Below, one piece after another: positions 3,001 through 52,016 of a stretch of 64,000 nt of DNA. The notes below the pieces were generated by a model that made no database searches, was not told where the DNA came from, and saw only the letters and a program-made list of their open reading frames with translations. The stretch comes from Podarcis cretensis. Taxonomy: Eukaryota. Every line of letters begins with the position of its first letter. The stretch's first letter is position 1. The position numbers and the translations under genes are program-made. The DNA lies in contig OX638152.1 of NCBI GenBank assembly GCA_951804945.1, forward strand, positions 105,338,001 through 105,402,000, given 5' to 3'.

Positions 3001-4812
3001 TACCATGCAGAGACCTTGCATAAAACAGTGTTTGAAAAAAATATGACACCCCCCCACACCTGCAAACTGAAGTGGAACAATCTAGAATGCAACAACTTCA
3101 TTCTGAATTAGGTGTAGATTGAGACACACCCCAGTGAAGTCCTCAGGTTTCAGCAAAACTGAGCTTAAACGTAAGCCTCCTGGTCCAGGCTATTGAGATG
3201 CCATCTATAGCCCACTGGCTCGACAACAGCCCTCTCAAATAAGAAGGGCATGATTTGGAAATACTGAGACCCTGGGAGATGACTTCCATAGAATCATTAT
3301 TCCAAACCAATTAGAATCATTATTCCAAATCTTCCTCCTTGAAGAAACTAATTTCCTTCTCTGAATTAAAACCAATAACCAATGCACAACATTCCACACT
3401 CGTTTGAGTGGCATGCAACCCACCCCAAGATGAGCATGTTTAAATTAGTCATTACAGGTAGACAGTTGTGCATGTGCTTCAGTCTCTACTAGACTTTAAA
3501 AGTAATTAATTTTGGCTGGATCATTGCCATTCCACAAACATCTGCCATCAGTTTCAGGTAAAAGCATAATGTAGCCCCACATGTACTTGCACCATAAAAA
3601 TTAAACCATTTCAGAGCAGATTTACACATACATGTACGCTACTAGACAGTTCAGCGGTGCAACCCTTGATAAATGCTGGCTGAATGGATGAACTGACTCC
3701 ACTGAAAAGCACTATAGTCAAGAGAATGTACAATATTAAAATGTTATCCATTGTATTCAAACTCTGATGGTCCATTCATACATGCAAGTCACCATTTGAT
3801 TTGCTGCCATCAAATGAGGAGCACGCATGCCTGCAGGGTCAGCCTGAAGTCCTTGGCTACAAGGCAAAAATCAAAATGTTGATTCATGCCAAGAATAAAT
3901 ATTGTGCTTTCACTTCCTTTTTATTTATTTGTTTGTATATTTGAATCCCATGAAGTGGAGCTAAACATATAAATTAAACATACACGCAGCTAAACATATA
4001 TTCTCAATCCAGTTGAAGTTAAGCACAATCTGAGCCAACAGGGGGTGGGGGGCGGGTAACGGCACGTGGCTAAAACCTTTTCTGTGGAATTTCAAAGTGT
4101 TTAACTTTCATCAGATAGTAGCAATCTAGCAAATCTCACTGCAGAATTTATGTCTCTTTTAACTGCTTAGTTCTTTTGGTCATGAAGAAAAAGTGGCAAG
4201 GGCACACAGTACTCTTATGTCAAAAATAAATATTATGTGTACAGTATATCTCTGTGTACAGATATATTTAATAGGACATTCTAAACATGAAAACATACAT
4301 TTGCAAACAGAATTCACCTTGACATACACAAATGGAGAGCTACATTCACTGCATCTGCAAATTTCCTCGAATCAAACCCCATATGTGTAGATATATTTTT
4401 TATTAAACTGAACAATATCTACCATCTCCACTTAGCAGTGAGGGATGGGCCTTCCCATTTTCCCTGGGAATATTACAGTGAAACCTCAGACAAAGCCCCT
4501 CTGCTGGCCAATTTCCAGTTCTGAGAAACCTGATCAAACATAGTGGTTCTTAGGTGTAAATGTGCACCAGTTTCACAGTACCGTAATGCTTCATGGGTGT
4601 GCCATTTTTTTTTTTTTATTTTGCTGACCTAACTTCCAATCAACCTGCTACCGATGAACTGAAACAAGAATCAGGCCCAAATGCAGTCAGGTTTTTGAAC
4701 CCTGGGCCAACCCATCTTGGGGGATGCCTGGAGAGAGGCCTCTCAGCAGGTTTCACTGCAGACCTAAAATGCAACTGGGCAGTGAGGGAGTTTCGGGTGA
4801 TTTCTAAAAGTC

Positions 4813-4821
4813 TCCTACCTG
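4813..4821 (-). other. PCDH17: Splice donor of PCDH17 exon 1; intron 1 runs off the left edge of the window
   Basis: Minus strand reads CAG|GTAGGA directly after MSIIQ. I found no match to the expected next exon (TDNFPAEPNY...) in 1-4800. Confidence 0.85.
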
Positions 4822-7419
4822 AATTATGGACATCCGGCTCGGGGGAGCCTCACTGACGTTAGTCCCTTGCCCTGTGAAGCTGGTGTGGCACCCCACATGC
4901 CCCTGCGGCACAGTCAGGTTGTTGGAGGCAGGTTTCAGGTACATCACCTCCGACCTGGGCGAGCTCAGGGGCAGCCGGGTCTGGTAGTCAAAGTACATGG
5001 GGGACGTGGCCAAGGAGGGGCTGCTGACCACGTTCATGACATTGAGGGGCCCCCGGCTGTCCTCCCCTTCACTGGGCACGAGCATAATGTCGTTCTTGCT
5101 AATCTTCTTCTTCTTGCCCTTGCTCCCGCCGCTGCCTCCGCCCCCACCTCCGCCACCACCCCCTCCACCCAGCTGGGGGTGGCTGTACTCAGCAATGCGG
5201 CAGTTGTAGGTGCGGATCTCCTTGTTCTCCCGCTTGCACTTCACGGCAATGGTGATCATAGCAGCCAGGAGGATGATGGAAACGGTGCTCAGGGTGACGA
5301 TCAGAGGCAGGGACAGGTCCCAGTGGGGTCGCCTGTGCTGCTCGCCATTCACCTGGGGCTCACCTGCTTCAGGCAGAGGTCCAGCCAAGGCCCGCACAAT
5401 CAGCTTGGCCACTGCGGAAAGGCTGGGCTTTCCGTGGTCACTGACCTTGACCACCAGCTCAGCCACAGGGCTCAGCTCTTCCCAGTAAGGGTGCAGTGTG
5501 CGGATCTCCCCACTGGTTGGGTCCATCTCAAAGAGGTGCTCCTCATTGCCTTCCACAATCTCGTAGGTGAGGCGCCCACTTTCCCCAAAATCGCTGTCCA
5601 TGGCACGGACAGTGCCCACAGGATACCCAACGCCAGCGTTCCGCGGGACCTGGAGCTCGGCGGTGTCATTGATGAGGGCTGGCAAGACAATGAGAGGAGC
5701 GTTGTCGTTGACATCGAGGACAGTGACGCGGACGGTGGCGTTGCTCTCTCGGTGGGGGGAGCCAGAGTCTTTGGCCAACACATGGAACTCAAAGTGCTTG
5801 GTCTGCTCGTAGTTGAAGCTACGCAAGGCATAGATGGCGCCATTGGTGGGGTTGACGGAGACATAGGTGTAGATGGAGACGTCACCCACGTGCCCTGGCA
5901 GGATGGAGTAGGACACTGTGCCGTTCTGCCCCAGGTCTGGGTCCTTGGCCAGCACAGAGCCCAGGTACTCCCCGGGGATGTTGTTCTCAGGGACCTGCAG
6001 CACGTAGAGGCTCTTACTGAAGCGGGGAGGGTTGTCGTTCTCGTCCAGGATCCTGACAGAGAAGGATTTGGTGGAGTTGAGTGGAGGGCTGCCCCCGTCT
6101 CTCGCCAGGATGGTGACATTGTACTCGTCCTGCACCTCTCTGTCCAAAGGCCGGTCTGTCACCACGGTGTACAAGTTGTCATAGTTCTCCTCCAGGGTGA
6201 AGGGCACGGCCCCGTCCCCGCCGCTGCCATCCCCTTGCACCCGGCACTGCAGCTGCCCGTTTTTGCCCGAGTCACGATCCGTCACTCTCACCAGGGCGAT
6301 AACGGTGCCCGGAGGAGCCGCCTCGCTCAGCGCCCCTTGGCGCACCGAGACGAAGCCGATGGTGGGCGCGTTGTCGTTGCGGTCGACGAGGCGCACGGTG
6401 ACTTTGCAGTGGGCCGGGATGGGGTTGGGCCCCAGGTCGCGCGCCTGCACGTCGATCTCAACGAGGCCGCCCTCCTCGTAGTCCAGGTTGCCCTTGACGC
6501 GGATCAGGCCCGTCTGCGGGTCGATGCTGAAGAGCTCGCGGACCCGCTCGGGCGCGTAGCCGCTGAACGAGTAGAGCACCTCGCCGTTGGTGCCCTCGTC
6601 GGCGTCGGTGGCGTTGAGGTCGATGACGGCCGTGCCCAGCGGCGCGTTTTCGGGCAGCTCCACCACGTAGGAGGCGGCCTCGAAGACGGGGCTGTTGTCG
6701 TTGGAGTCGATGAGGCGCACGTTGAGCTGCACGGTGCCCGAGCGCGGAGGGTCGCCGCCGTCGAGCGCCGTCAGCACGAGCGTGTGGTGGCTCTGCTCCT
6801 CGCGGTCGAGCGGCTTCTGCACCACCAGCTCGGGGAACTTGGTGCCGTCGCCGCGGGCCTTGACGTCGAGCGAGAAGAGGCTGTAGTCGTCGCGGGTGAG
6901 CACGTAGGTGCGCAGCCCGTTCTCGCCGGCGTCCGGGTCGTGGGCGCTGGCCAGCGGGAAGCGGGTGCCCGGCGCCGCGTTCTCGGAGATGTCCAGGTCC
7001 ACCTGGTCCGACGGGAAGGCGGGCGCGTTGTCGTTCAGGTCCTGGATCTCCACCTTGATCATGCAGATCTCCTGGTCGTTGGCGAACACCTCGAGCGACA
7101 GCTGACACTTGGCGCTCCGCCGGCACAGCGCCTCGCGGTCCAGGCGCTGCTTGGTGTACAGCAAGCCGCTCTCGCCGTCCACGTCCAGCAGGTGCGGCGC
7201 CGAGTTCTCCAGCACGCGGAAGGTGGACTTGGCGCCGCGGGCGCGCTCCAGGGACGGCAACCCGCCGCCCGCGCCGGGCTGCAGCCGGGCATCGCGGCCG
7301 ATGTTGCCGATCACCGTGCCGGCGCCCTGCTCCTCGGGCACCGAGTAGTTCAGGTTCTTGAGCGTCAGGGCAGGCAGAGCCCAGCACAGCAGCAGGCAGC
7401 AGGCCGAAAGGGGCCACAT
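4819..7419 (-). CDS. PCDH17: Protocadherin-17, first coding exon: signal peptide, six cadherin repeats, transmembrane helix and start of the cytoplasmic tail; downstream exons are outside the window
   Basis: The 867-codon frame starts MWPLSACCLLLCWALPALTLKNLNYSVPEEQGAGTVIGNIG. It has repeated DxNDN/LDRE/AxD cadherin motifs, a TM segment LPLIVTLSTVSIILLAAMITIAV and a tail KCKRENKEIRTYNCRIAEYSHPQ...RMSIIQ that matches PCDH17 as I recall it. The exon ends at ATT CAG|GTAGGA (GT at 4818-4817), a phase-0 donor. Confidence 0.96.
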
Positions 7420-19050: not shown

Positions 19051-20622
19051 CATTGCTGACACTTTGCCATAGGAAAACAGGGCAATTGCAACAACGCTAT
19101 CTTCCAGCAATAGATTGCCTAGTTGTCCTTAATGGGAATGCCCTAGACTGAGTGGTCTTAGTTAAAAGATCAGAGCTTAATATCCAAAAAGTATATTCAA
19201 ATTAAGATTTGCATTTGCAGAGAAAATGAGTAAGTTGTACCCATACTGCACAATTTGTTTTAATTTAATATGTACAACAGTTTTAAGTTTTCCAAATGGG
19301 TAACTTAGGATAATTGCCCACATCATTTATGTGTTTCCTCATTGGTGAGTCCATTGTGCTGTAAAATAGCAGGCAGAATTGTTTGGAAGAAGAGTTGCAT
19401 TTTAAATTAAACTTCCCATTGAGTTGTCATATGGATTTGATCAGACTGTTATTGTACATGAATAAAATATAGAAAACTTCTACAGCACATTTATTGAGGC
19501 TTAAATGTTGCCTCTTAAGGGTTGTGCTTTTCCATTTCACTCTTTATTGAGGAGTAGTCAATAGCCAACATCTAGAAATGGTCACATTCAACCTTAATTA
19601 AATGCATATTTGGGAAACTTAATGTAAAGTGCTAGCCCAGAAGGTTAGTTAATTTGGCTGTAAAGTGAAAACCATATTGATTGATGCAGGCCACAATACT
19701 GATGTGAATTCCTCTGAAATATAGCATTTGCTGTCCTGACTGTTGGAAGTACCTCGGGTCATCAAATTGATGCAGAGGTTATTGAACTCTTAATGCAAAA
19801 CTTAATTACTCAGAAATCTGTTGAATATGCATCTTTTAAAAACTTACCTACTGTTATATTCTTTAAGGGACAATGACCTCTTCTGACCTTTGCCTTGTAA
19901 GAATGAAATGTTCTCAATTCAGATTGAAAATGGCAGGTTTCCTGAGCCTGCAAATACCTAATGGCATGCATTTGTTTGAATTAAACCACCCCTTGTGTTG
20001 AGCCAGATAAAAATGTACTTGGTTAATATGCAAGGGCCATCTGTGAGCATTTTCTATGAAGCAATTACTGTGATCAAGGAAGAGAGACCCGCACACATCT
20101 TGATTTGGGTCAAGCACAGGCATGAAGGAGTTCTCCAGCCATCAAAATGCCTATCCTACTTTTACTGAATGGCTGGATACAACTTTTGAGGTGATCCCCA
20201 CATCTAGCGCCACCATTTGTATTTAACTAGTTGCTCCTGACTACTGCTGGAATCGGAGCCAGTTTATTTCTCTACATGTAAAGGTATGTCCTGTTCTTGT
20301 GACTGTAACTTGTTAAGCAGCAGGTCAGCTGAGTACTGCCACCCTACCCACCCCGCCATCTCCCATTTATATGAGACCCAGCATGGGATGCTGAAAATGT
20401 GGCCGTGCAGGCCTCTCCATGGAGAAAATTCCTGGGGCGTTACACTGCAGTTTGGAAATGCCTTCCCTGAACTCCCTGTTGATCCATCTTCCCTAGCAGG
20501 TTTGACCCAAAGCAAAGCCTCCTCAGACGATTTTAAAAATAAAAAACAAAGCACTCTTTGAAATGCATTGGGCCCACCAAAAATATTACAGTGAAATTCT
20601 GATTCACGTGAAGTTAGTGGTT

Positions 20623-20979
20623 AAAGGTAAAGGTACCCCTGCCCGTACGGGCCAGTCTTGACAGCCTCTGGGGTTGTGCGCCCATCTCACTTAAGAGGCC
20701 AGGGGCCAGCGCTGTCCGGAGACACTTCCGGGTCACGTGGCCAGCGTGACATCGCTGCTCTGGCGAGCCAGAGCCACACACGGAAACGCCGTTTACCTTC
20801 CCGCTGGTAAGCGGTCCCTATTTATCTACTTGCACCTGGAGGTGCTTTCGAACTGCTAGGTTGGCAGGCGCTGGGACCGAGCAGCGGGAGCGCACCCCGC
20901 CGCAGGGATTCGAACCGCCAACCTTTCGATCGGCAAGCCCTAGGCACTGAGGCTTTAACCCACAGCGCCACCTGCGTCC
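20623..20979 (-). mobile_element. Full-length Sauria SINE (Squam1)
   Basis: Minus strand starts GGACGCAGGTGGCGCTGTGGGTTAAAG (A box), has B box GGTTCGAATCCC and an (ACCTTT)n tail. Perfect 14-bp TSD tgaagttagtggtt at 20609-20622 and 20980-20993. Confidence 0.93.
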
Positions 20980-23591: not shown

Positions 23592-24674
23592 GAGAATTCT
23601 GTTAGACGCTTCTAGCCTCTTGCGTAGAACTTCACAAAGGAATTACTATTAAATCAGTTTAATTCTGTGGTGCAGATTAATTTGCATGGATGAGGATGCT
23701 GGTGGGAAATTAAACATGCATTCACAATGGAGAGAGTCATCCAATCATATCAAATTTACTGCATGTAATGCTTTAAAAGAAAATATTATGAAAATGATCT
23801 ACCGGTGGTACATGACCCCAGTCAAGCTTGCAAAAATTTACCACTTGCCTAACAATAAGTGTTGGAAATGTAATGAGACTGAAGGCACCTTCTACCACCT
23901 TTGGTGGACCTGCCCAAAGGTTAAAGCTTTCTGGGAAATGATCTATAATGAAATTAAGAAGGTCCTTAAGTGGACTTTTCCTAAGAAACCAGAGGCTTTT
24001 CTCTTGGGCATGGTTGGCCAAGTGGTGTTAAGGAAGGATAGGACTTTCTTTATGTATGCCACTACAGCAGCAAGAATTCTACTGGCAAAGTATTGGAAGA
24101 TGCAAGAACTACCTACTCTGGAAGAATGGCAAACAAAGGTGATCGACTTTATGGGACTAGCCGAGATGACGGGCAGAATCCATGACCAGGGGAAAGAGAC
24201 AGTGGAAGAGGACTGGAAGAAATTTAAAATATATCTTAAAAACAATTGTAAAATTGAGGAATGTTAAGATGTCAGGGGTAAGAGGTAAAGAATTGCAGCA
24301 GTAATTAAAAAAAAATTAAAGGAAACTTTATGAAAGGGAATTAAGACAATGGACCTAAGGGTTGCTAAAGAACCATTAAACAAGGATGCAGGGATGGGGA
24401 GGTATGGGGAAGTCAAAAGAAAGAAGGGTATGAAATGATGATTTTGAAGCTATATTGATCTATATTGTTTTTGTTATCTGTCTGAAAAACGAATAAAAAT
24501 TATTAAAAAAAAAAGAGAGAATTCTGTTAGACGCTTCTAGCCTCTTGCGTAGAACTTCACAAAGGAATTACTATTAAATCAGTTTAATTCTGTGGTGCAG
24601 ATTAATTTGCATGGATGAGGATGCTGGTGGGAAATTAAACATGCTTTCACAATGGAGAGAGTCATCCAATCATA
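23592..24674 (+). repeat. 158-bp direct repeat pair (23592-23749 and 24517-24674) flanking the L1 fragment
   Basis: Both copies run gagaattctgttagacgc...gtcatccaatcata with one mismatch (catgcAttcac vs catgcTttcac). Confidence 0.95.
23750..24514 (+). mobile_element. L1-clade LINE, 5'-truncated: ORF2 C-terminal Cys-rich domain, 3'UTR and poly(A)
   Basis: Open frame IKFTACNALKENIMKMIYRWYMTP...CWKCNETEGTFYHLWWTCPKV (CX2C-X8H-X4C) ends at 24267. It is followed by a G-rich 3'UTR, AATAAA at 24492 and an A-tail at 24505-24514. Confidence 0.92.
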
Positions 24675-24711
24675 CCAATTTCCATAAGAATGAATCTTTG
24701 TGCATATGTCT

Positions 24712-35940: not shown

Positions 35941-36927
35941 ACCCAAGGACCAAATCTGTGGAATAGTAGCTTGACATCCTTTTTAGACCATTTAGGGAAA
36001 GAAAAGCTGACTTTGGGAGAGTGACCTGGAACAGAGAAACGGCATGGGAGGGAAAATTCAGCCTATTTTCCTCCTGTGAAGTTTCAAAAGAAAGTTGTTT
36101 TTTATTTTATGTATTTGAAGAATTTACACCGCACCTTTACATCATTCAGTGGCCAAAATGACTTAAACAAAATAATGAAAACATCAGTTAATACAAGCCA
36201 AAAATACAGTATGACCAAACACATCCAAAACTAGGTTAGAAAAGCAGATCAGCTAACAAGCAGTGACAATTAGGAAAACACCAAAAGACAAAATAAAAGT
36301 TTTACTTGCCATCTAAATGGGCGCAGAGACAGTAAACTGCTTTGCTTGTTAACACCACCAATAAGCCAAATTGTGTTTTTTTATTTATTTTAAAAATAGT
36401 CATATTTTGGTTTCTGTTAAAAATCTTCCTTATTATCCTTCTCAACATACTTCATGCACCTTTTCACTACAGCCTGAATGGTGCTGAAGTCACACAAATT
36501 TACTTATTTATTGGGGGCAGTGAGTGGTGGAGGAGCTTAAATATATCAAATGTTCTGAGCTTAAAGGACAGAAAAGATTTGCTTTGAATGAAGCCAAAGT
36601 TACTTTTAATGAAGTTTAATGAAGTTCAAAGGCAGATCCTGGAACAGTCTTTGAAACTCAAGTTTCAGTCCTTGAATAAAACCAATCTCACATTTTAGAA
36701 CATGCGCAGATAGTTTCCCAAAGCTGAAGTGTTGGTCCAAATACAGAGCAGTGATGAGAGAATAAGGGAGAGAATGTCTGTCCAGGGGATGGAGGGACAA
36801 AGACAAAGAGAAATGGCTGTTGCTGCCAGAGGTCCTTTAACCAGGAACTTCACCATCTGAGGCTGGGGAAAAGAACAGGGTCTTTTGACTTTCCAATTGA
36901 ACTCAACATGAACCTCACGGTTTCTTT

Positions 36928-38527
36928 TCTTTTCATTCCCTCGTTTCATCAACCTCCTCTCACCTCCCTTTTTGTATTCCACTTCTATTAATTATTTCAG
37001 CAATTCCTTTCCATCTTTCTCTATTTTCTGTCATATAATTATCTTAATTTATTTTAACCTTATCTTCCATTAATGCCATAATACTTATTTATACTTAACT
37101 CCTTATAACATTTCTACTAAAGCCATATAATTTCATTCCAACATTTTTCTAACACTCATTAATTTTACAATATTTCTATAAATAAACTTTAAACATTTTC
37201 CAATCTTCTTCCACCGTCTCTTCTACCTGGTCTCGGATACTGCCAGTCATTTCCGTCAATTCCATATAGTCCATCAACCTGGTGATCTTCTGTCCGAGGC
37301 TCTTAACTCTTTTCCAAGTCCCTTCTGCATGTCTTCTTCATATTTATACATGCACTTTACTTTGTCTTCTGTTGATCTTGTTCTTAATTTCCTTCCTTTG
37401 ATGCCGAGGAGTAGATCTCGGGGAGGCTCCAACCTAGCAATGTTTTTATTCCTTCTCGACAGGTCAGCCAAATCTCCGTAGTTAGCACTATAGTCCAAAA
37501 GATGTTTCAGGACGTGTTTCAAAATCCCTCCAAAACTGAAAGTCCCCACAACTCCAATCTCCTCCTGGCCCAAGTCCAAATCCCAAAGATCAGTACATCC
37601 CTGCATGAGGGAATCTATCCAACTTTCCTTCTCAAATCCAAGCAGGGTTCCAATCCTCAAAATCTGACTTTCTCTAAATTCAGTCATAGAAGGCAACAAC
37701 TTATATTCATCAAATTGCCTCTGTAAGACTGGAACTCTCTCCACTTGTATTACTTTAGGTTCAACAACAACTTTCCCCCTTGCCTTCTCAACAATTTGCC
37801 ATGTCAAAGTAGATTCCTGAAACAATTCCTGAATAGTTTCTGTATAGATGTTCACTTTTTGTCCCAAATCAGTCACTTTTTGTTCCAAATTGTCAGTTTT
37901 GATAGTCAACACATCCGTCTTCTTCTGAAGCTGTTCCAATGAAGCACTTATCTTGCATAATGCTTCTTCTGTCGACATTCTTACCAATCCAAGGCTTCTT
38001 CTGTCGACATTCTTACCAATCTAAGGTCAATCCCTGGTTCTCACAGTTTTTTATCTCTGCAGCTGGTAATCCCCCCAGCTCCACTCCTGTAACAGTTTCA
38101 AAGGCTCCCTCTAGAGGGAAACAATTTCTATTTGTATCAATCCTTTTAAACACAGTTCAAGCAACAAAATTAGTTTCAATTTTCGGTTACTTTTACTCCT
38201 TTTTAAACGCAGAAGGAAACAATGCAAACAATATATTTCTCTTATTTGCTATCTGTCCACATACGTTTTATTCACAGTCAATGAACTTTCCCAAAACGTC
38301 AGTCTTACTAGCAGCCCGTTTCTGGTGGTAATTTATCTTTCTTCACTCTCTCTCCTGCAGGCTTACACAATCCAAAATTTCCCCCCTCTTCTCCTGCTTC
38401 CAAGAGGGGGTTTAATGATTTTAACCGATGGAGGTTTAATCCTTTACAGAAGACTTTCCGAGACTTTAGCTTGCAGCCTCTTTGCTTCAGCCTATTTACA
38501 AAAGGGGAAGGCGGACTTCTTGTTTTA
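36928..38527 (-). mobile_element. Non-autonomous L1-derived retroelement A (HAL1-like): partial 5'UTR, ORF1-like frame, last ~40 codons of ORF2, 3'UTR
   Basis: 17-bp TSD aacctcacggtttcttt at 36911-36927 and 38528-38544. Region 37276-37149 translates LMDYMELTEMTGSIRDQVEETVEEDWKMFKVYL*KYCKINEC*, homologous to the L1 ORF2 end at 24140-24267. No endonuclease or RT is present. Confidence 0.85.
37274..37978 (-). CDS. L1 ORF1-like coiled-coil protein (234 aa from ATG) of element A
   Basis: Uninterrupted frame with a heptad-like N-terminus LEQLQKKTDVLTIKTDNLEQKVTDLGQKVNIYTETIQEL, located between an L1-type 5'UTR and the ORF2 tail. C-terminal motifs are shared with the ORF at 47938-48504. Confidence 0.6.
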   Translation of the reverse strand: MSTEEALCKISASLEQLQKKTDVLTIKTDNLEQKVTDLGQKVNIYTETIQELFQESTLTWQIVEKARGKVVVEPKVIQVERVPVLQRQFDEYKLLPSMTEFRESQILRIGTLLGFEKESWIDSLMQGCTDLWDLDLGQEEIGVVGTFSFGGILKHVLKHLLDYSANYGDLADLSRRNKNIARLEPPRDLLLGIKGRKLRTRSTEDKVKCMYKYEEDMQKGLGKELRASDRRSPG

Positions 38528-38925
38528 AACCTCACGGTTTCTTTGTTGCTACTTAGCAGGATGGTTCAGCAGCCTTGGAAGCAAGTCGATTTTTCTTTTT
38601 CTTTTTGATTTCTTTAAGCTTTATGAAGATACTCAAGACAGGGGGGTTTATTACAGCGGAAAACCAGACAAAAACAATCACTTCAGTAGATCGCAAGCAC
38701 CCAAACATTAAAGGTTTCTTTCAGGGTCTTTTCACATGTTATGCTGTTGAAACAGCAGAGTTGCCATTAAATGTAAACACAAAAGGGAACCACAGCTGAT
38801 CCTGGATGCTTGATCACTAGGGTTGCTAGGCAACCAGACCAAAATTGCCCGGCTTGACTTTTCACCTGGGAAAATTGCCAGATGTTCTTCGGTAAAGACC
38901 AGGATGTTGGCTGGTTGCTTTTTAA

Positions 38926-38958
<33 letters not shown>

Positions 38959-38970
38959 CATCATCATCAT
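38926..38970. repeat. (ATA)n(ATC)n microsatellite
   Basis: Read directly from the sequence. Confidence 0.9.
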
Positions 38971-39145
38971 GGTGTTTGAGCAGAACCCAGTAGTTTCATT
39001 TCCACACCATACGCAGGCTTGAAATGTTCAGCTCACACATGCTTGCAAAAGAACCCGGTCATTGAGCTCAGCTCCAGTGCACCATTTTCAGGGCTAAATG
39101 CAGAATTTGGGGACCCATTAAGTGTGCTGCCATTGGCTGCCTTCA

Positions 39146-39147
<2 letters not shown>

Positions 39148-39199
<52 letters not shown>
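39148..39199. repeat. (TC)n microsatellite
   Basis: Read directly from the sequence. Confidence 0.95.
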
Positions 39200-39203
<4 letters not shown>

Positions 39204-41639
39204 TCTCTGCCCATCTCCCCTCCCCAGTTAGAAAGAGAGTTGGCAGTCCTACTTACTGCTGCCACCAATTCCAGGTGAGCAAATGACTTCCAAAGATGCC
39301 CATTTCCTATTTGGAAATAAGTCCCCGTGATCTCCACAGGACTTAATTCCTACTTGTGTCCAATGCAGTTGCTCATAGATAGGATGGGTGCCTCACAGCC
39401 TCCCCCTTTACTTCCAGGAACATAGGCTTAGTTATAGTTTTCTTCCACTTCTTTGAACTATCCTGATAAAGATCTTCTTAGTACTATAATTTACAATCCA
39501 CTCCTAGATTCTGAAGATGTCCTGTCCTTCATCACACTCTCATTAAGCACAGCTGAAGGCAGAAAGTGATTAATCATTCTGATTAATCAATTAATGTTTA
39601 ATTGCTGAGTGAGGCCATGTACTTTATTTGCACAAAAACTTTCTCTCTTTCGTACGAAGCTGCCACAGTTCTCACCAGGCTTCCACAACCACAGCTATAC
39701 ATAGCCTCATATGTCCAACCCCAGCAATTTCTGTGGCTGTCATGAATGTCTGCATGCCTCTTTCCCCTTGTACTGCACCATCACATTGCTTTCCATCGTT
39801 CATTTATTTAACCCTGACCCTGCACCCAGCTGCTGCTACTAGAGCCCTGTCTCATTTCTCTCTCTCCCCCAGGTACACATCAACACTGCTTCCTTTTATT
39901 TATCCGGTTTCATGTACTTGAGAAAAAATATATTCTGACCTTTGGTTGTCAAAATAGCACCCATGGTGGTTTGCAAAAATTTTAACAAAAACAATAACAT
40001 TCAATAAAATAATTAAATAACAATATAAAGCAGAGACAACTGCAGCAAATGAAACCAGCTAAAAAGCAATGGGATCAGCTATTAAAATCTGCCTCACAAA
40101 TTCTGCCTATAGTGGTCCATGTACTATCATGCATATACAGTACTGGTAATCCCTAACCTGTTTCTGTGTTTTTAACAGTCACCTGACACTGACCTACAGA
40201 AACTTAGCAGGTGAAGCAAACCTTTTTTGGGGCAGAGATATATGGCAGGTAAAGCTTCACCCTCTTACTTAGTTTCTGAGCCAAATTAGAAGTGCTCATA
40301 ATCAAAAATTTGAATGCTCCAGGTCTAAGATACTTGAGGGAGCATCTTCACCCACATTTTACTCCCCATATTTTGAGAGCAGGAACTGAAACCACCTGAG
40401 ATTAGTCTGGGTTTTGGTGGGGCTTCCTCACCTCTTGAGCTTTCTCTTGCTGAAATGCACCACATCTCCTCTGCTGGCCCTTTTAGGAGAGTTATGGATC
40501 ATTTCCAGACATGTGAGTTGCAATTGTAAATGTTGTCTTCTCTCATATATGGATTTCTAAGCTGCTATTATTTTAATTTTTGATATTTTATACACTTCAC
40601 AATGGCATCTTATCTAGGCTTTGAGCTGGTTTAGGGATTGCAGTGGAAAAGAAGGTTATCTCGCGACAACGTGAAGAATACCTACAATGTCTGTGTAGAC
40701 TGCTGTCAAAGTCACATGACCAGAGCCAATCAAACAATGACAACTTTTGTGTAGCTGCTTTTAAAGGCACTTAAAGCTGTCATTTACTGGCCCTGCTCCT
40801 GTCCTTTAACAGCAGCTTCTGGAAAAGAGAAAGAGAGAGAGATGTGGATTGGATTCAGTGCCTCAGCGGTATCGAAACGTGATTTATTTGGATTACACAA
40901 TATAGGGTGTTCTCACATATTTATCATGTTATTGCTATTTCATGAATACAAAAGATACATTTATTTATATGAGATATGGATCCACATTTTTCAGTATATT
41001 TATGTGAATAATTTTTTTTTTATATTCTTGGTACATTGGATGAAAACTTTGGTGGAGGGGGGAGGTACACTATTAAACAGCCAAGCAAAAACAAATTTTA
41101 ATGGCTTTAGGGTAGTAAAGTTAACCCTAGTCAGATGTTTAAAATGTGCTTTTCTGCAGATAAATTAGTGTATGTAAAAATCACACAAATATGCGCCCTC
41201 TTTCTTTGTGATATGTTTCCTCTTTTCGTGTGTTCCTCCCAGGAGAACTTGTTGCAGAAGTGTAGCTAGCTGGGGGGGGGGCAGTCTGCACCGGCAGGGG
41301 GGTTGTAGGGCGGCATGGGGTTCTGTCACCTGCGCACCTCGCCTGGTTGTCCAGAGCCCAGGGACAGCAGGGAGGAGTGGGCAGACTCATGGCTACTCCA
41401 AGCCAGAGTGGACAGGCATGATGATTCCACCCCCAGGCCTGTGCCATCGGTGGGGGCCAACCTGGCCAACTCCTAGGCATGCCCCCCCCCCCCGGTAATA
41501 TGGTAGCTCCACTTTGATCTGCAGGATAAGGTTTGGAAAATAGCACTCAAGGTTTCTGCTTAATCCTGCATTTGAGCTATGGCTTCCTGCAAAGTTCCAC
41601 TTCAACACTCGCACTCAACAAGCTTTTTAACCACCTTTA

Positions 41640-42050
41640 AGTTGCTGAGGGAGGTCATCCAAGGATTTGGACTCTGTGTATGTGTGTGTTGGGGTTATCA
41701 GGGTGCAGGTGGCAGTCATGAAGCCCTCCTTGTCACTGGAGTCAGGAGAGGCTTTGGAAGTGCTGAATTGCTATATGGACTTGGAATGGCCTGGATAAAC
41801 TGGAGCAGAATTAGCAAGATAGTGGCACTGTGAGTTGGCAGTTCCTGGCCCAGGAAGTTGTATGCCACCTGTTTTGGATGGGGTTGTACTCCCCTTGAGT
41901 GAGGTGTGCAATTTGGGGGTGCTTCATGATCCAGTGTTGTCACGTGAGACCCAAGTGGTCTCAGCAGTTCAGAGCATCTCTTTCCAGCTTAAGCTGGTTC
42001 ATTGGCTGTGACCTTTCATGAATAAGACTAATTTGGCTACAGTGAACCCT
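41640..42050 (+). mobile_element. Highly degraded L2 ORF2 (post-RT) fragment
   Basis: cctgttttggatggggttgtactcccc...gtgtgcaatttgggggtgctt...gatccag...acccaagtggtctcagcag...ttccagcttaagctggtt parallels the L2 region at 56420-56600. Confidence 0.6.
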
Positions 42051-43039
42051 GAATTAATGGGAGATAACTGCGTTTAAGCAAACATGTTCAACAGGCTTTG
42101 TTTTAATTCAATAAATTTCTCCTATAATTGTGGTTTCTTTTAAAAAAGAATCATAGCCCTAAACAGTGCAAGCTCAATATGCAAACTAGGATCTTGTCTT
42201 GTGCTTTGTAAGGAACTTTCAGCTGCTTGTGGTTCACCTACTTAGTTTATGTGAAAGGCTAAGGGAGATGTTAAACAAGGGTAGAGGGAATTGAGGAGTG
42301 ATGCTAATTGAAGCAAAGCATTTTATTAATGTGGAGCACTGGCTCTAGTCATGCCTGAAATCTGAATAATCATCATAACGCTGAACACTTAATAATGCTG
42401 TCTTGTATTCTTTGTTGCACCCCAACTCCCACCAGTCTTAATCATTGTGATCATAAGGAATTGATTGATTAGAACTATGTGAGGAGGCAACAGTGTGTTG
42501 AACCTTCACACTGACCCACCTGCAGACCTGATCAGAAGCACAAATAGGTGGGCTGGAGGTGGGGCAGTGCAGCAGCAAGTGACCATCAATGCCAAGGCCC
42601 AGGACTTCATGGCTGCCATTATGACCATGCAGGGCCATCCCACCCATGAGGCAAGTTGACACAGCAGCCATGAATGGCAGATCTGCCACCTACTTGGCAG
42701 CCTTCCCCTGATGCCTTCTCTACAGAGACCTTTAGGTGAATAGGAGGTACTGCTGGTCCCCTTCCACCCCTAGGGAGGAAATGGAAAGGGCTGCCCTCTG
42801 GGCTCTGCACTCACTCAGCTCATTGCCTCCTCCCATGACAGCCTTTGATTCATCATCATCATCACTGACATCTGATGGAAGGGCGTTCCACAGGGATGGT
42901 GCCACTGCTGAGAAGGCCCTCTGCCCTACTTCAACTGTCGAGTAAGGTTTATTTGATTCCCCACTTGCTCCTGATGTGGATCTTTATTCTCTCCTTGTTC
43001 CTTACATTGTTCTTCATCCACTCCTTCTCCCCTGGCATG

Positions 43040-43935
43040 GAGCAAGCACCATTTTGTGGTTCATCTAAGGTGCCAAAATGTATTGGGCCAGCCCTAAGGC
43101 CATGGGGCAGTTTCAACATGTGGTCTGAAAATGGAGATCTTGACATTGGTCCCTTGTCATGGTCAGATCACCTGCTGCTGTGATTTAGGCTTCAGTACCT
43201 TTTCCCTTCTGCAGAGGTGGACCATAGTCCATCCTTGGAGGCTGATAGATCCAATTGGCTTCCAGGTGAGACTGGAGGATTTTCTGGCTGATAATCCTGT
43301 CAAAAGCTCCTGTCAAAGCCCTGGCCAGCTTGTGGAATATGCAAGTGGCTTGGGCCATTGGCATGAGTGCCCTTTCCCCCTTTGTAGAGCTGGTGTGGCT
43401 CCTTGGTATACACCAGAGCTCAGGGCAATGAAACAAGCTGGGTAAGCTCCAGGCAAATGCAAACTCTGGTGAGTGCTCATCATTGAGTCTACTCGGTCCA
43501 GAGCACTAGCTAGTCCTTTTGTGTTGGATGACTTTCAGTTAGGAAGGCTTGAGGAAATGGACAAAGTGATTGGTTCTATCTGGACAGCCACCTGTGCCCC
43601 ACATGGCTGATAAAAACTAGCAAGGAGGGGACAGCTGGCTGGGCCAGGGAGGTGGTTCATGTCTCTTTGTGAGATGAGTGGTCCCTGGCTGCTTAAAGGA
43701 GGCAGTCATGAGTTCTTAAGAAACCCTCCCTAGATCCAGAAAATCAAAATAATTACCAACAAGTCACCAGTGTCCCTTCCTGGTCAAGGTTCTTATGCTG
43801 GTGGTTGGAGGCCAGATCCAGGCTCTCTTGGATGAAGTCAGCTTTCAAGATCCATTTGAGTTGAAGATTAGGTCCAGTTCTGGCTGAGAAACTGCCCTGG
43901 TCACCCTGAATGATGCCCTTTGTCAGGAGAGAGTG
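43040..43935 (+). mobile_element. Degraded L2 ORF2 fragment from the end of the AP-endonuclease to the start of RT
   Basis: Remnant motifs PLSWSDHLLL (endonuclease SDH), APWYTPELRAMKQAG and LKEAV..KKPSLDPENQNNY, with stops and frameshifts. Confidence 0.75.
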
Positions 43936-43939
43936 TGGC

Positions 43940-43971
<32 letters not shown>

Positions 43972-46151
43972 GTTAACATTTTCATCTTTTGTTATTTTAT
44001 AGTATTCTAGAAAAAACATAAGTTCTATAAGAATTACTGTGCTGTTGGGAGTATTTGTTAATTTTTTTGTCCTCTGCTGCTGGATTTATGCTGTTTTGGG
44101 TTTTATGGTTATTGGTTTTATTTTTATGTAATTTTTTTGTAAAGCTGCAAGCTACCTGTAACACATTTTGTTATAGGGGGACACAAATAAAAAAACAGGC
44201 ATATATGAAGAAATAGCCATTACAAAAAAAATGCCAGGTTAGAGACTTCTGTCCTTGTCCCCTTTTCTCCACCTTTCATTTCCCCTCCCACCACTTGGAT
44301 AACTTATGTCAAGGCAGGTGGGTCAGAATTTGTGTGTGAGAGAGAAGGAGATGGGGCCAGCAGTATCGGTGGTGTCTTTATCAATGACAGGTAATGAGAG
44401 GGGAGTTCATGTATATGGGAGGAAGGGATGGAAACCGTCACAACAGGTAGCATTTCCAAACACAATGCCAAATTTATACTTTCTTTTTTTTTGGTAGATT
44501 TCACATTCCACATTTAGTTAGCTGTTCATTTTGATGGAGTTTAACAGAAAAAATCCCTCAAAATACATTACGGATAAGAACTGAGAAAATCAATGTGGGG
44601 GTAATTTTTGCACACATTCAGAAATATTACGTTGTAGCTGTTAGATACTCACAAGTGCCATTCAGGTCTTCAGATGAGGGGAATAAGTGAGGGGCAGAGT
44701 GAGGGTGGCCGCATGCACCAACCCAGCCCCCAGTCTCCCTGTGCCCACTGATTCCACCATGACTATCCTGAAAAAGCTAAGGAAAGTCTGGCCAAAGGTG
44801 CTTAGACTCCTCCCTGCAACTGAGAACCCTGATTCTGCAAAGTTCTCAACTGTGGGAAAGATTTGAAGGACATTCAGAATGCAGGAAGAACCCCATGAAA
44901 GTGGTTGGCCTCAGTGCAAGAAGCCATGGTCCACCTGCTACTCCCGAGAAATAACACTGAGCTAATTGGAGGAATGTCCAGAGCACAAAGAGTGAAGTGG
45001 CAGAGAGGAAACAGTGGAGGAGGAGGATCATTCATTTTGACAGGCAGATCTGGCTTTTAATCACAGTGAATTATTTCCCCAAGGCACTCCAATCACAGTG
45101 ACTTGGGGAGGAATTAAAAATTGTTTGATTTCCACTTGGATCCTTTCCCCATTGCAAGTCAAGGGAAAGATTGCCATTGTATCCCTCAAAATCCATGGGA
45201 GAGAAAGAAGCTACTCTCCACCAATGGCACTTGGGGTTACAAGGTCCCTGTTCTAGGGTGACATTTTCCCCACAACAGTCTGTCCTGGGGATTTAGGCTG
45301 TTTTTTTCCTCCAGCATGCATTTACCTATGCAAGATTTATTTCTATCCCAAGGAGAAGAGGCTGAGGGAATTCCATAGGAGTGAGCAGAAGCCCATTAAC
45401 AATCTTTGTGTAACAGGATTTTTGCTGGGTGGTGAGATTTTCCTCACTGCAGTCTGTCCTGAGAATCCATGCTCTTCATCTTCCACCCCAGCCCACTTCC
45501 TGAAAGTGGGAACACCTGCTCTTTTGGGAGAACTTCTGCAGCAATCATATGACAGGCTTTGGAAGGTGTGGCCATGCCTACAAATGGCATTCGATTCTGG
45601 CAAAAAATGAGAACGTTATGGACTTTTCCTTTTTATACAAAAAAGCAAAATGTAAAGGTAAATAAACAAACAAAACAAAACAAAGCTAGCTGGATGGATG
45701 GATGGATCTGCCTTCAATCTGGCAGGATTAGTCTAACCTTGAGGGACTCCTATGCCTGTAAATTTCATCCACTTTGGTCCACAGGAGAATGTTATGAGCA
45801 GAAAAGGACTGTAGGGCTCTGACTTTAGGACCCCCTTCTCCCAAAAAACCACCAGGTGCTCATGATCTTCCAAGGTTCTCCACTTTTCTCCACAAGGAGA
45901 AAAGACTCCCCACAGTGGAAGATATGCTGTATATTCCAATATAGGGAAGGGGAAGGAATGGTGCATTTTTAGCTGCATTTCCTGAAGAGGGCTATTGTCT
46001 GTGGCTATTCATTGTAAGGTAAGGTGAGTGGTGGGTGAGAGAGCAGTTTTCAGGGAAGGTTATCTGGTGTCTGCTCTTTTAACTGTGGAAGCCCTGTTGC
46101 ACTTCCTCACTGATACTCCACTGGTCTAAAGTGCTATGTAAGGCAATGGTA

Positions 46152-46366
46152 AAGGTAAAGGGACCGCTGACCATTAGGTCCAGTCGTGGCCGACTCTGGG
46201 GTTGTGGCACTCATCTCACTCTATAGGTCGAGGGAGCCAGCATTTGTCCGCAGACAGCTTCCGGTCATGAACAACGGGGGGAAGGTCGCGGGGATTCGAA
46301 CCGCTGACCTTCCGATCGGCAAGCCCTAGGCTCTGTGGTTTAACCCACAGTGCCACTCTCATCCCT
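46152..46366 (-). mobile_element. Sauria SINE with internal deletion
   Basis: Same head, B box and ACCTTT tail as the copy at 20623 but about 140 bp shorter. 13-bp TSD taaggcaatggta at 46139-46151 and 46367-46379. Confidence 0.9.
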
Positions 46367-46407
46367 TAAGGCAATGGTAGCATGCTGGGAAAACTACAAT
46401 TATAGAA

Positions 46408-46526
46408 TAAGGTTACCAGACATCCCTGTTTCCCAGGGACAGTCCCTGGATTTACACATCAGTCCCCACAATCCATTGAAGTTGAAAAGTGTCCCCAGAT
46501 TCATTGAAAAAAATCTGGTAACCTTA
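46408..46526. mobile_element. 119-bp hAT-type MITE
   Basis: Perfect 13-bp TIR TAAGGTTACCAGA/TCTGGTAACCTTA; flanks ttatagaa / ctgtagaa match at 6/8. Confidence 0.75.
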
Positions 46527-47124
46527 CTGTAGAAGCCAATTTTATGCCAAATAAATTCTGAATTTCATACCAACCTGCCCTTCCCTCATTTTTTTTTTTT
46601 TTTTTTTTTTTTTTGCCAAGGCTCAGTGAGGACCTTTGCTGTGGCTGTATGCGGATTGTGAATTAATAACCTGTGCCCTCCCCCTTTATTGCTGGCCCCC
46701 TGGCCTGCGGTCAGCAATGATGGAAGTTGTAGACCAATAATATCTAGGGGCCCACATTTTGCCACCCCTGGTTCCATCCTCAGGAGTTTTATTTGTACCT
46801 GTCTCTTCTTGCTTCCTACTGGTACAACTAAGTTCTTTTTATTCCAGCTGGACTGAGATGTTCCTCTCAGGACTGGTCCTATTATGAGGCAGAGTGAGGT
46901 GGCTGCCTTAGGCAGAAGATGCTGAGGGGGTGTGTGTAGACATTGCTGGTTGGGCCAGGCAGCTGCCCCTGCATCTCCTATGCCAGCCTGCTGCACTCAG
47001 GCGCAGTGCCCTCAGAGCTGAAGAGCGCTTCAAAGGCTAGTTTGGTCAGCTCCTGCATCTGAAATGGGGGAGACGCCATCCTGTCAATTGGCTTGGCCTT
47101 AGGCAGTCAAATATCTTGGGCCAG

Positions 47125-48961
47125 GACTTCCGGGTTAGCGCGATCTGGTTAATGGCGGATTCCCTCCGAGCTCCGGAGGGAATTGGCTCCGCTGGAGAAG
47201 GGTTCTACCGCGACGGCGACGTGGGGACCCTCAGAAACCGCAGGCGCTGAAGCCTGCGGACTTGGTGACTCGGCGGGCACCTAAAGCGCCCCCCGACCCA
47301 CGAAGAGCCTTTTTAAAGGCTGCGGAGAGGGTACGGGGAGTGGCGTGGTGCTGTGAGTGGACCGCTACTGCAGTGGAGCGAAGCCGCGAGCCATGGCCGG
47401 AGACCGCTGACTTTCTTCCCTGAAATTCGGACTTTAATTAATCCGTGAGTAAAATGGAATTTGGACTTTAAAATTTCTACCTTTGAATTCGGTACGATCG
47501 GGGGATGTGCTAAAGGGAAGTCCGCACCCCCCTGCTTACAGAAGATTTAAAGCAAGGATCGGAGAACTAAGGTGGAGAGTTTTTTCTTTTTGGTGTTTTT
47601 TAAAAGATAATATTTTCATGAATTTGACAGAAGAAGATTTGTGCTGGAGAGTAAGACTGGAATTTTAGAAGCTTTTGTTTAAACCCCCCCCAGACCCGGG
47701 AGTGTCCTGTATGTGAGCTGGAGAAAAAGGAACAAGGAGTTTGACAGCTGTCAAAGGAGTTGTCAAACGGGCAGTGAAAGTTAAAAATCTTATTATTTAA
47801 CACCTTTCTGGACTAAATTTGCTACATTTAAATTAAAGTGGTTGGGAACAAAGTAGTGAAATAATAAAGTAACGGACTGTTGGGAAAAGACTATTAAGTA
47901 ACCAGAATCCCCCTAGGGGAAACATTGAAACACTACAATGACTGCAGATGGAAAATTACAGGCAGAGATAGAAAGAATGTTTTTTCTCGTGGGAAAGTTG
48001 CAGGAGCAGACTACGGCTATGAGTAAACAACTTATAACCTTGAACTCTAAAATAAGTGACTCTGCTGAATGCACAATGGACTTGACCGGGAAAAAATCTG
48101 CAGCTGAATTAGAAGAGACAACTTCGGAGCAGGAGGAGAGGGAACAAGGGCCAGTACAGATGGAGAGTACCAACCAGAAGCCTACATTGTCAGAACACAA
48201 AGAAAAAGACCTTTGGATTACAAATCTGCGAAAGATGCGAAAGAGGAGGGAGGAAGCCCCCGGAACACTTGGAATATTTGAATTTAAAAGAAACAAGAAA
48301 TATGATTGGGGCTTCCTCTTTGAGTATGGATTGGCTGACCTTTCGCAGCAGCTGGTACTAAGTACTTTGGATGGAAGAAAATCTGATGAGACTGAGCTAG
48401 AACTCCTTCGAGACCCGAGGACCAACAAAGAGGGCTACCAACAAAATCGCCAGAGAGAGACTGACAGAGATTTAAAGGCCTCAGATGTGAGGAATCCAGG
48501 CTAAAAACAGTTTTTGTGGACATGGGGACATTGGGAAGGGACAGAAACCAGGGTGGGGGGGGGAAGAATTTTTTTTAAAAAATGTTTATGACCTTTGTGT
48601 TTGATTATTATGACCTATTTTTAAGATAAAAGGGAAATTCGTGGAAGGAATTCGAGTCGACCTTAGAAAAGGATTTAATATTTATAAGAAAACTGGATAA
48701 GTAAAATTTGGCCAAGTAATAAGAATTAAGTATTTCTTTAAATATATATATATATAATAATAATATGTAAAGGATGAGAGATATGAACTTGCTGAGCTAA
48801 TTTAATTGAATTAGGATGTATGAAGGGGGGGTGGGGGAAGGTCAAGAACTGGGGTTAGGAAAGTAAGGATATGAAACTTTATATGTGTGGTCTTGGTCTG
48901 TGTGTGTGTGTCTGTGTCTATAAAATGTGAAAACTCAATAAAAATTTTATTTAAAAAAAAA
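47125..48961 (+). mobile_element. Apparently full-length non-autonomous L1-derived retroelement B (HAL1-like), 1.84 kb
   Basis: Starts GACTTCCGGG...AATGGCGG with a ~300-bp CpG-rich 5' end. It has a single 188-aa ORF, a G-rich 3' tract, AATAAA and poly(A). 17-bp TSD caaatatcttgggccag at 47108-47124 and 48962-48978. Confidence 0.88.
47938..48504 (+). CDS. ORF1-derived protein (188 aa) of element B
   Basis: ATG-initiated open frame with an N-terminal heptad pattern LQAEIERMFFLVGKLQEQTTAMSKQLITLNSKI. Motifs YGLADLS and DLKASDVRNPG* parallel those of the element A ORF. Confidence 0.55.
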   Translation: MTADGKLQAEIERMFFLVGKLQEQTTAMSKQLITLNSKISDSAECTMDLTGKKSAAELEETTSEQEEREQGPVQMESTNQKPTLSEHKEKDLWITNLRKMRKRREEAPGTLGIFEFKRNKKYDWGFLFEYGLADLSQQLVLSTLDGRKSDETELELLRDPRTNKEGYQQNRQRETDRDLKASDVRNPG

Positions 48962-51622: not shown

Positions 51623-52016
51623 AAGGTAAATGTAAGGTAAAGGACCCCTGAACAGTTAAGACCAGTCAAAGGTGACTATGGGGTTATGGCGCTCATCTTA
51701 CTTTTCAGGCCGAGGGAGCCGGCATTTGTCCACAGACAGCTTTCCAGGTCATGTTGCCAGCTTGACTAAGCCATTTCTGGGGCAACGGAATACCGTGATG
51801 GAAACCAGAGCACACGGAAACACCATTTACCTTCCCACCACAGCATTACCTATTTATCTGCTTGCACTGGCGTGCTTTTGAACTGCTAGGTTGGCAGGAG
51901 TTGGCACAGAGAAACGGGAGCACACCACATAACGTGGATTCAAACCACCAAGCTTCTGATTGGAAAGCCCAAGAGGCTCAGTGGTTTAGACCACAGCGAG
52001 ACCCCCATCCACTAGT
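51623..52016 (-). mobile_element. Older full-length Sauria SINE
   Basis: Colinear with the copy at 20623 but with CpG decay. Probable TSD gagactata at 51614-51622 and 52017-52025. Confidence 0.88.

Follow-up and report, generated by a model that had tools for sequence, protein, structure and literature searches.

The HAL1 (half-L1) elements of mammals were reportedly described by Smit in 1999, and Bao and Jurka are said to have argued in 2010 that the protein of the first open reading frame (ORF1p) is needed by HAL1 and evolves faster there than in L1. HAL1 elements have an L1 5′ untranslated region (UTR), ORF1 as the only open reading frame (ORF) and an L1 3′ end; ORF2 is removed by internal deletion, and the elements move as units with target-site duplications (PMC5753468, PMC5786205, PMC2241872). 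The relevant passages of these sources describe HAL1 in mammals, and give rat HAL1 as 98% identical to its L1 across the 5′ 2.6 kb. The same layout is found in two elements, termed A and B, within a 64,000 nucleotide stretch of the genome of the lizard Podarcis cretensis (contig OX638152.1, positions 105,338,001 to 105,402,000; the window). A and B differ from HAL1 in an ORF that is without the N-terminal domain, half to all of the RNA-recognition motif (RRM) and part of the C-terminal domain (CTD), in the near-neutral evolution of its middle, and in a Pro-Gly-stop end made at a deletion junction.

Other known systems offer partial parallels. HeT-A and Ag-Sponge, like A and B, encode one ORF1-type protein and borrow a reverse transcriptase in trans, but they belong to the Jockey and CR1 clades, and the relevant passages of the source describe no hollowed-out ORF (PMC5786205). 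The DUF3669 domain of KRAB zinc-finger proteins is an L1 ORF1p fragment kept as a trimerisation module; as presented there, it differs from A and B in being a host-gene domain and not a mobile element (bioRxiv 2025.03.01.640934). The literature searched, whose coverage extended neither to the primary HAL1 paper nor to Repbase and Dfam, contained no lizard HAL1 and no HAL1 with domain loss. How non-autonomous RNAs overcome the preference of L1 for its own RNA is an open question, and in the sources cited the reason why HAL1 keeps ORF1 has so far been argued by analogy only.

It is next to certain that A and B are HAL1 derivatives and that their reading frame is under selection. Relative to the host L1 family from which they descend (the parent), A lacks ORF1p residues 1-47 and 207-248 and B lacks more, so that the ORF1p architecture of coiled coil, RRM and CTD, implied to be whole in mammalian HAL1, is not intact. 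Because a third family in the same genome, termed H, keeps the RRM-coding region, A and B are regarded as a variant derived from HAL1 and not as typical members.

A and B are young, high-copy, ORF1-only L1 derivatives, amplified as deleted units. In the 1.5 Gb of genome searched (51 contigs), protein searches gave at least 150 matches for each element, and exact matches to UTR patterns numbered 406 for A and 772 for B (reversed controls, 0). Lengths are uniform, at ∼2.17 kb for A and ∼1.84 kb for B, and many copies have target-site duplications. Pieces of B are also present in two sequencing runs that may be of RNA, which says nothing about expression. The median distance to the nearest neighbour is 1.5% in A (61 rows) and 0.7% in B (90 rows). 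The parts of the two window copies are:

36911..36927, 17-bp target-site duplication flanking A on its 3′ side (its partner lies at 38528)
36928..38527, minus strand, element A, copy in the window
36928..37146, minus strand, L1-derived 3′UTR of A, shortened in this copy; in the family, this 3′ part matches the parent L1 at 82% identity
37147..37276, minus strand, leftover of the final ∼42 L1 ORF2 codons, outside any ATG-started ORF of its own and directly 3′ of the ORF1 stop
37274..37978, minus strand, A ORF, 234 amino acids (coiled coil, half RRM, CTD, tail), whose first Met is an internal ORF1p Met (parent residue 48)
37274..37306, minus strand, A terminus LRASDRRSPG-stop, parent ORF1p tail through Pro, Gly-stop from the ORF1/ORF2 deletion junction
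37525..37526, minus strand, site of the in-frame 42-codon RRM deletion common to A, B and intermediates
37856..37978, minus strand, N-terminal coiled-coil segment of A, under purifying selection in the family
37959..38022, minus strand, 32-bp tandem duplication spanning the start codon in this A copy
37979..38527, minus strand, 3′ portion of the L1-derived 5′UTR of A, with the AGAAGTCCGC block at 38511-38520 and the palindromic CCCTCTAGAGGG block within 38095-38118
38528..38544, matching duplication on the 5′ side of A
47108..47124, 17-bp target-site duplication flanking B on its 5′ side
47125..48961, plus strand, full-length copy of element B (1.84 kb), running from GACTTCCGG at its start to the A-tail
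47125..47937, plus strand, B 5′UTR, initial ∼330 nt 69-70% identical to the 5′UTRs of autonomous L1s
47938..48504, plus strand, B ORF, 188 amino acids (heptad helix, near-neutral spacer, conserved tail)
47938..48057, plus strand, B N-terminal amphipathic helix, residues 1-40, with positions 7, 11, 18, 21, 28, 32 and 35 hydrophobic in 21/21 aligned relatives
48472..48504, plus strand, B terminus LKASDVRNPG-stop
48505..48961, plus strand, B 3′UTR with AATAAA and A-tail, its final ∼40 nt resembling the end of the young L1
48962..48978, matching duplication on the 3′ side of B

As a first-pass annotation of the window had proposed, the two ORFs exist and their frames are open. The window copy of A is short by ∼370 nt at its 5′ end and by ∼200 nt plus the poly(A) at its 3′ end when set against full-length members of ∼2.17 kb. 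Its 32-bp duplication creates a 9-codon upstream ORF and leaves the main ORF four residues shorter.

Selection on the open frame is evident from changes that subfamilies share. In trees of 65 A and 100 B copies, the 531 changes on internal branches, which are those shared by subfamilies, include no stop codon, where a spectrum model leads to an expectation of 39, calibration on strict singletons to one of 21 and calibration on loosely private changes to one of 15 (p=4e-6 against singletons). Indels common to at least three copies and lying outside homopolymer runs were counted in 54 of 63 A rows and 89 of 100 B rows. All eight within the ORF are in frame, compared with 8 of 47 in the UTRs (p=1e-5), among which some clustered events may be over-split; a preference for frame-preserving indels was a check named beforehand. 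Because these rows came from protein searches from which mostly stop-free hits were fetched, an ORF-blind sample was drawn from the first 30 UTR-pattern matches per family. The frame is open in 22 of 30 B copies and 14 of 30 A copies, every disruption is private, in-frame indels recur, and no frameshift or stop recurs among the 60 copies. Matches listed with one TGA and one TAG were considered as a broken subfamily and rejected, as these stops sit upstream of the ATG.

At the amino acid level, selection is concentrated at the two ends. Whole-ORF dN/dS (the ratio of nonsynonymous to synonymous rates) is 0.77 in A and 0.83 in B. In bins chosen after protein conservation had been seen, the N-terminal 36-45 codons give 0.34 (A) and 0.25 (B) against singletons (pooled p=7e-4), and the middle gives 0.62 (A) and 1.00 (B) against singletons, or 0.91 and 1.01 by model. 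Internal and terminal branches did not differ when first compared (p=0.28 and 0.64), and among loosely defined private changes the ratio of nonsynonymous to synonymous changes is low at the N-terminus too. Strict singletons were used since both terminal branches and loose private changes mix in changes inherited from unsampled source copies. Among 21 B-side proteins, columns conserved at 90% or more number 12 of the first 36, 8 of the last 12 and 4 of the 140 between, i.e. 20 of 24 at the ends. Hydrophobic residues keep a 3-4 heptad spacing in all 21, and only B residues 1-40 fold with confidence in the predicted structure.

The first-pass annotation had named a dN/dS near 1 with frequent frameshifts as the pattern that would speak against selection. 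Its first part is seen in the middle of the ORF; shared frameshifts and stops are not seen. A middle dN/dS near 1 in the absence of these indicates that selection acts on the frame and on both ends, and at most weakly on the bulk of the sequence.

The earlier description of the two ORFs as orphans does not hold, since A shares 49% identity with the ORF1p of a host L1 (E=1e-73). That both descend from L1 ORF1p is borne out by this match and, for B, by comparison of a B-side profile with an ORF1p profile (probability 72.5, E=3e-5), bridged by intermediates. Between A and B themselves BLASTP gives E=3e-5, a Smith-Waterman score of 66 was reached by none of 2000 shuffles, and profile against profile the probability is 94.8 (E=5.2e-8). 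The three protein motif pairs occur in the order first given. All three are collinear when viewed through intermediate relatives and are remnants of the ORF1p C-terminal part; a pairwise alignment, through a GRK match, had made ARLEPPRD and TELELLRD appear non-collinear, and this was overturned by aligning the intermediates. The loss of most of the RRM, also proposed earlier, applies to B, which is without nearly all of it, and not to A, which is without about half (parent residues 207-248).

The case for homology is built on direct comparison and on a fold search, as Pfam and PDB sequence searches were uninformative. No L1 family of Pfam was found in A, in B or even in intact host ORF1p, and PF02994 matched nothing in the genome; the PDB sequence search returned generic coiled coils only, and a word-based protein search with A gave no relatives. 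The top ten PDB fold matches of the parent ORF1p model are human L1 ORF1p (E=4e-10). Full-length open relatives are found at 41-65% identity. One B relative is from Podarcis lilfordi, and no sequence of the P. cretensis genome is more than 52% identical to one B-side relative or more than 56% identical to another, so the lineage lives in other genomes too.

Descent from the host L1 took place by successive deletions. A profile of the A and B proteins led to 18 representatives, some of them full ORF1p. Some full ORF1p contain the start (MSTEEAL) and the end (RALDRRSP) of A internally, and a genome search with that region led to the parent L1 family. A lies on the parent in four collinear blocks of 74-83% identity, with three gaps that correspond to the first ∼47 codons, 42 RRM codons and nearly all of ORF2. 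Family H makes up 7 of the 43 distinct loci examined from the parent-region search; it retains the whole ORF1 region, the RRM-coding part included, and its junction between ORF1 and the ORF2 end falls exactly where it does in A. The parent carries the same five letters on both sides of this junction. A clean join there would read on as Pro-Asp, and one extra G in H turns this into Pro-Gly-stop. Relative to H, A has a 6-nt loss that removes the H stop and puts another in the same place, and B families have yet other Gly and stop codons. The terminal Pro-Gly-stop is thus created at the founding deletion junction, although for B the junction is homologous at the protein level only.

A, B and intermediates have in common the start Met, the 42-residue RRM deletion and the terminus, and the 18 aligned proteins form a graded series. 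One A subfamily (L282, L286 and L287), young, on a long branch and ∼80% identical to other A copies, has a 51-nt in-frame CTD deletion that matches a gap in the B-side proteins; it is a living intermediate towards the B type. In the 5′UTR tree the parent family is not basal to A, and in the ORF tree A is nested among parent and HAL1 copies. Since the two trees disagree on rooting, the order of events rests on the shared deletions. On these, the simplest reading would be a single lineage from L1 through H and A to B, which gives an order and not dates.

The 5′ ends tell of the same origin. The proposal that A and B share UTR blocks stands for AGAAGTCCGC/GGAAGTCCGC and for a CTAG-centred block, which are homologous and inherited from the L1 5′UTR; as first quoted for B, the latter had one G in excess, and the form shorter by one G sits at 47910. 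The third block, AGTAAGACTG, is present in both elements but not at homologous positions, and several other B subfamilies have not kept it; its sharing is therefore probably due to chance. With an ORF1p-derived ORF alone, ORF2 deleted and an L1-derived 5′UTR, the two elements are L1 satellites, as had been suggested.

An autonomous L1 is present in this genome in many near-identical intact copies, with an ORF1 of 330 and an ORF2 of 1245 amino acids, and its first ∼300 nt are common to A and B at about 70%. Because A and B are without ORF2, have L1-type ends and coexist with many intact L1 copies, we infer that they are mobilised in trans by L1 ORF2p. Seven near-identical parent-family copies (L324-L330), all sharing one stop, are located no more than ∼250 kb from contig ends, which suggests spread by subtelomeric duplication rather than by retrotransposition.

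What, then, does an ORF1 so reduced do? The predicted product should be unable to coat RNA as ORF1p does, because half of the RRM (A) or nearly all of it together with part of the CTD (B) is gone. The reading tentatively favoured here, which is possible rather than probable, is that the helix of A and B tethers the RNA, during translation, to the ORF1p coiled coils of a working L1. The helix would bind ORF1p, or itself first and then ORF1p, as a nascent chain, and the middle would be a mere spacer on which the sole demand is that it has no stop. A Pro-Gly-stop end might slow release, act as a C-terminal degron, or both; a degron would ensure that the released stub does not poison L1 trimers. 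ORF2p, supplied in trans by a younger L1 family, would then copy the tethered RNA. If a nascent coiled coil joined ORF1p trimers, the retention of the frame and the heptads, and of little else, would be explained.

Several published observations are compatible with such a tether. Multimerisation of HAL1-type proteins with those of their autonomous partner has already been suggested in print, in the portion of the source that concerns HAL1 (PMC5786205). Different human ORF1p coiled coils are described as forming heterotrimers only if co-expressed (PMC10588031), and coiled coils are given as the largest class of proteins that assemble on paired ribosomes (PMC12356879). Among the residues compared in the relevant section of one report, Gly before the stop gave the slowest release (PMC12278647). 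As set out in the cited passages, C-terminal -PG and RxxG are C-degrons, of CRL2-KLHDC10 and CRL2-APPBP2, respectively, and RxxG at the extreme end binds APPBP2 in vitro, with one or two residues past Gly in the optimal motif (PMC7458402, PMC10614623). The terminal R-x-P-G of A and B fits both patterns. This is a pattern match only, and the A and B ends, with no residue after Gly before the stop, are unlike the optimal APPBP2 motif. The tail would likewise fit a slow-release context, again as a match of pattern.

The terminus is retained: in every family sampled from the genome the major terminal types end in PG, and the terminal codons, the stop codon included, vary synonymously between families. 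The consensus of 2A/StopGo peptides is D-(V/I)-E-x-N-P-G followed by Pro. A 2A/StopGo reading of the NPG in B was rejected, as the spacing is one residue short, there is no Glu, Asn varies (S, D, L) and a stop follows Gly. It is doubtful, and a good deal less secure than a tether as such, that the whole ORF1 has been reduced to a nascent-peptide device in which an N-terminal coiled-coil hook catches L1 ORF1p, a spacer is translated only, and Pro-Gly-stop keeps the tether in place for longer and afterwards delivers the stub to a CRL2 ligase.

A number of points weigh against the tether. Pairing between different mRNAs, according to the proteome-wide data in the passages cited, was not seen (PMC12356879). 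The currently active L1 family is 24% identical to A and has no detectable pairwise similarity to B (E=0.14), so that a partner surface is not evident, and none of seven long parent-family loci has an intact ORF2. The B helix retains 6 of 36 residues of the parent coiled coil and is hydrophobic off the heptad core too (positions 15-17), which could point to a different partner or to a degron. With the long-branch subfamily counted in, the A N-terminus has about the nonsynonymous density of the middle, its low ratio then being due to more synonymous change; and the A middle is itself partly constrained against singletons (p=0.04). At the other end, the last 13 codons have a pooled dN/dS of 0.19 that is not significant against singletons (p=0.06). 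Short relatives end in PG in 18 of 22 cases, 16 of them as RxPG, with the other four stopping early or running on in other sequence, a figure inflated because the search profile included the tail motif.

Perhaps translation itself is what is selected, and the predicted product is disposable; this is a substantial possibility and comes close to the tether, though it falls short of being likely. Ribosomes would be kept on the RNA and the 3′UTR short, which would give a stable RNA located where ORF2p finds poly(A) RNAs, and the hydrophobic N-terminal helix and the PG end would be disposal signals that spare the driver L1 from an ORF1p fragment. A B middle with a dN/dS of 1.00 and no stops is what such an account expects, as are the stepwise loss of the RNA-binding domains, an end that fits two C-degron classes, and the drift of the B helix away from ORF1p towards a more hydrophobic sequence. 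The 3-4 heptad spacing in all 21 B-side proteins exceeds the needs of a degron, however, and Gly before a stop is reported to raise, not lower, nonsense-mediated decay, a poor fit to RNA stabilisation as far as the pertinent section goes (PMC12278647). The first-pass annotation had offered both a coiled coil and translation alone as reasons for an open frame, and the two are not fully separable; amino acid constraint on the N-terminal helix is not predicted by translation alone.

The classic HAL1 view, in which the finished stub acts alone as a minimal cis-acting substitute for ORF1p, forming homotrimers that bind or condense its own RNA via basic patches, is unlikely here. It is the view given for rat HAL1 in the relevant part of one report (PMC2241872), and by another account, in the text pertaining to it, an L1 ORF1p fragment can drive trimers and condensates (bioRxiv 2025.03.01.640934). 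A retains a long coiled coil and a CTD that is 60-66% identical to that of the parent. Against this, the RRM remnant and CTD of A have a model-based dN/dS of 0.84-1.06, and B has lost both and has a basic middle that is unconstrained. With its RNA-binding domains broken or gone, the cis-chaperone account is weak, at least for B.

That conservation of the two ends reflects signals in the RNA or DNA (context of the start or of termination, or structure) rather than the peptide is very improbable. Both regions do flank the start or stop codon, and a short hairpin can be drawn in the terminal codons of B, but synonymous changes are plentiful at both ends, and the invariant terminal residues and the stop are encoded by different codons between families. 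It is scarcely credible that there is no selection and that frames are open owing to family youth: copies are young (median nearest-neighbour distance 0.7% in B and 1.5% in A) and whole-ORF dN/dS is 0.77-0.83, yet no stop or frameshift is shared across subfamilies up to ∼20% apart in DNA, the UTRs have many frameshift-length indels, and full-length open relatives exist at 41-65% identity.

L1, HAL1 with a whole ORF1, A and B form a natural deletion series, in which selection marks the open frame, about five heptads and the last few residues. The series removes the usual answer to why such elements keep ORF1, RNA chaperoning in cis, and leaves two that can be tested. If ORF1 has indeed become such a nascent-peptide device, it would be a protein-based counterpart of the ribosome hijacking by Alu, with all evolutionary steps still in one genome. 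If the terminus is a degron or a termination pause, A and B would be unusual among mobile elements in keeping a self-destruct or stalling signal.

Other properties of the families concern mutation and 5′UTR structure. In the whole-element trees, changes shared by subfamilies are strand-biased, with C>T at 92 per 219 C and G>A at 19 per 391 G in A, and 173 per 287 and 101 per 434, respectively, in B; terminal branches of A are near even (C>T 173, G>A 258). Directions are approximate, being based on midpoint rooting and parsimony. The bias suggests one-sided cytosine deamination during replication.

A CTAG-centred palindrome lies just 5′ of the start codon, at 38107-38118 in A, at 47910-47920 in B and at ∼2293-2304 of L071. 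The young L1, A and B all keep it, and A and most B subfamilies differ in it by paired changes; it is imperfect in the parent and H copies shown. The B 5′UTR also has a perfect 16-bp palindrome, TTTGACAGCTGTCAAA, at 47742-47757, inside the 24-mer that was matched 772 times. A splice-donor-like GTGAGT (window ∼47445-47452; L071 ∼1777-1784) is the end of the best conserved 5′UTR block in L1, H, B and most A copies shown. Splicing at this site has no support, as none of 163 copies has a deletion beginning there.

One predicted protein (P0027), from the search with the A and B profile, has a RING/B-box, apparently TRIM-like N-terminus joined to an L1 ORF1p RRM-CTD, and may be a gene-model artefact or a real fusion. 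The window contains, at 4804-7419 on the minus strand, the large first exon of a protocadherin gene, presumably PCDH17-like, with A ∼29 kb and B ∼39 kb upstream. A single short interspersed element family, which we take to be the Sauria SINE, has three copies, at 20622-20960, 46150-46346 and 51632-51990. At 23592-24681 a 5′-truncated L1 (ORF2 end, 3′UTR and A-tail) lies between 165-bp direct repeats of 98% identity, a length that far exceeds that of usual target-site duplications.

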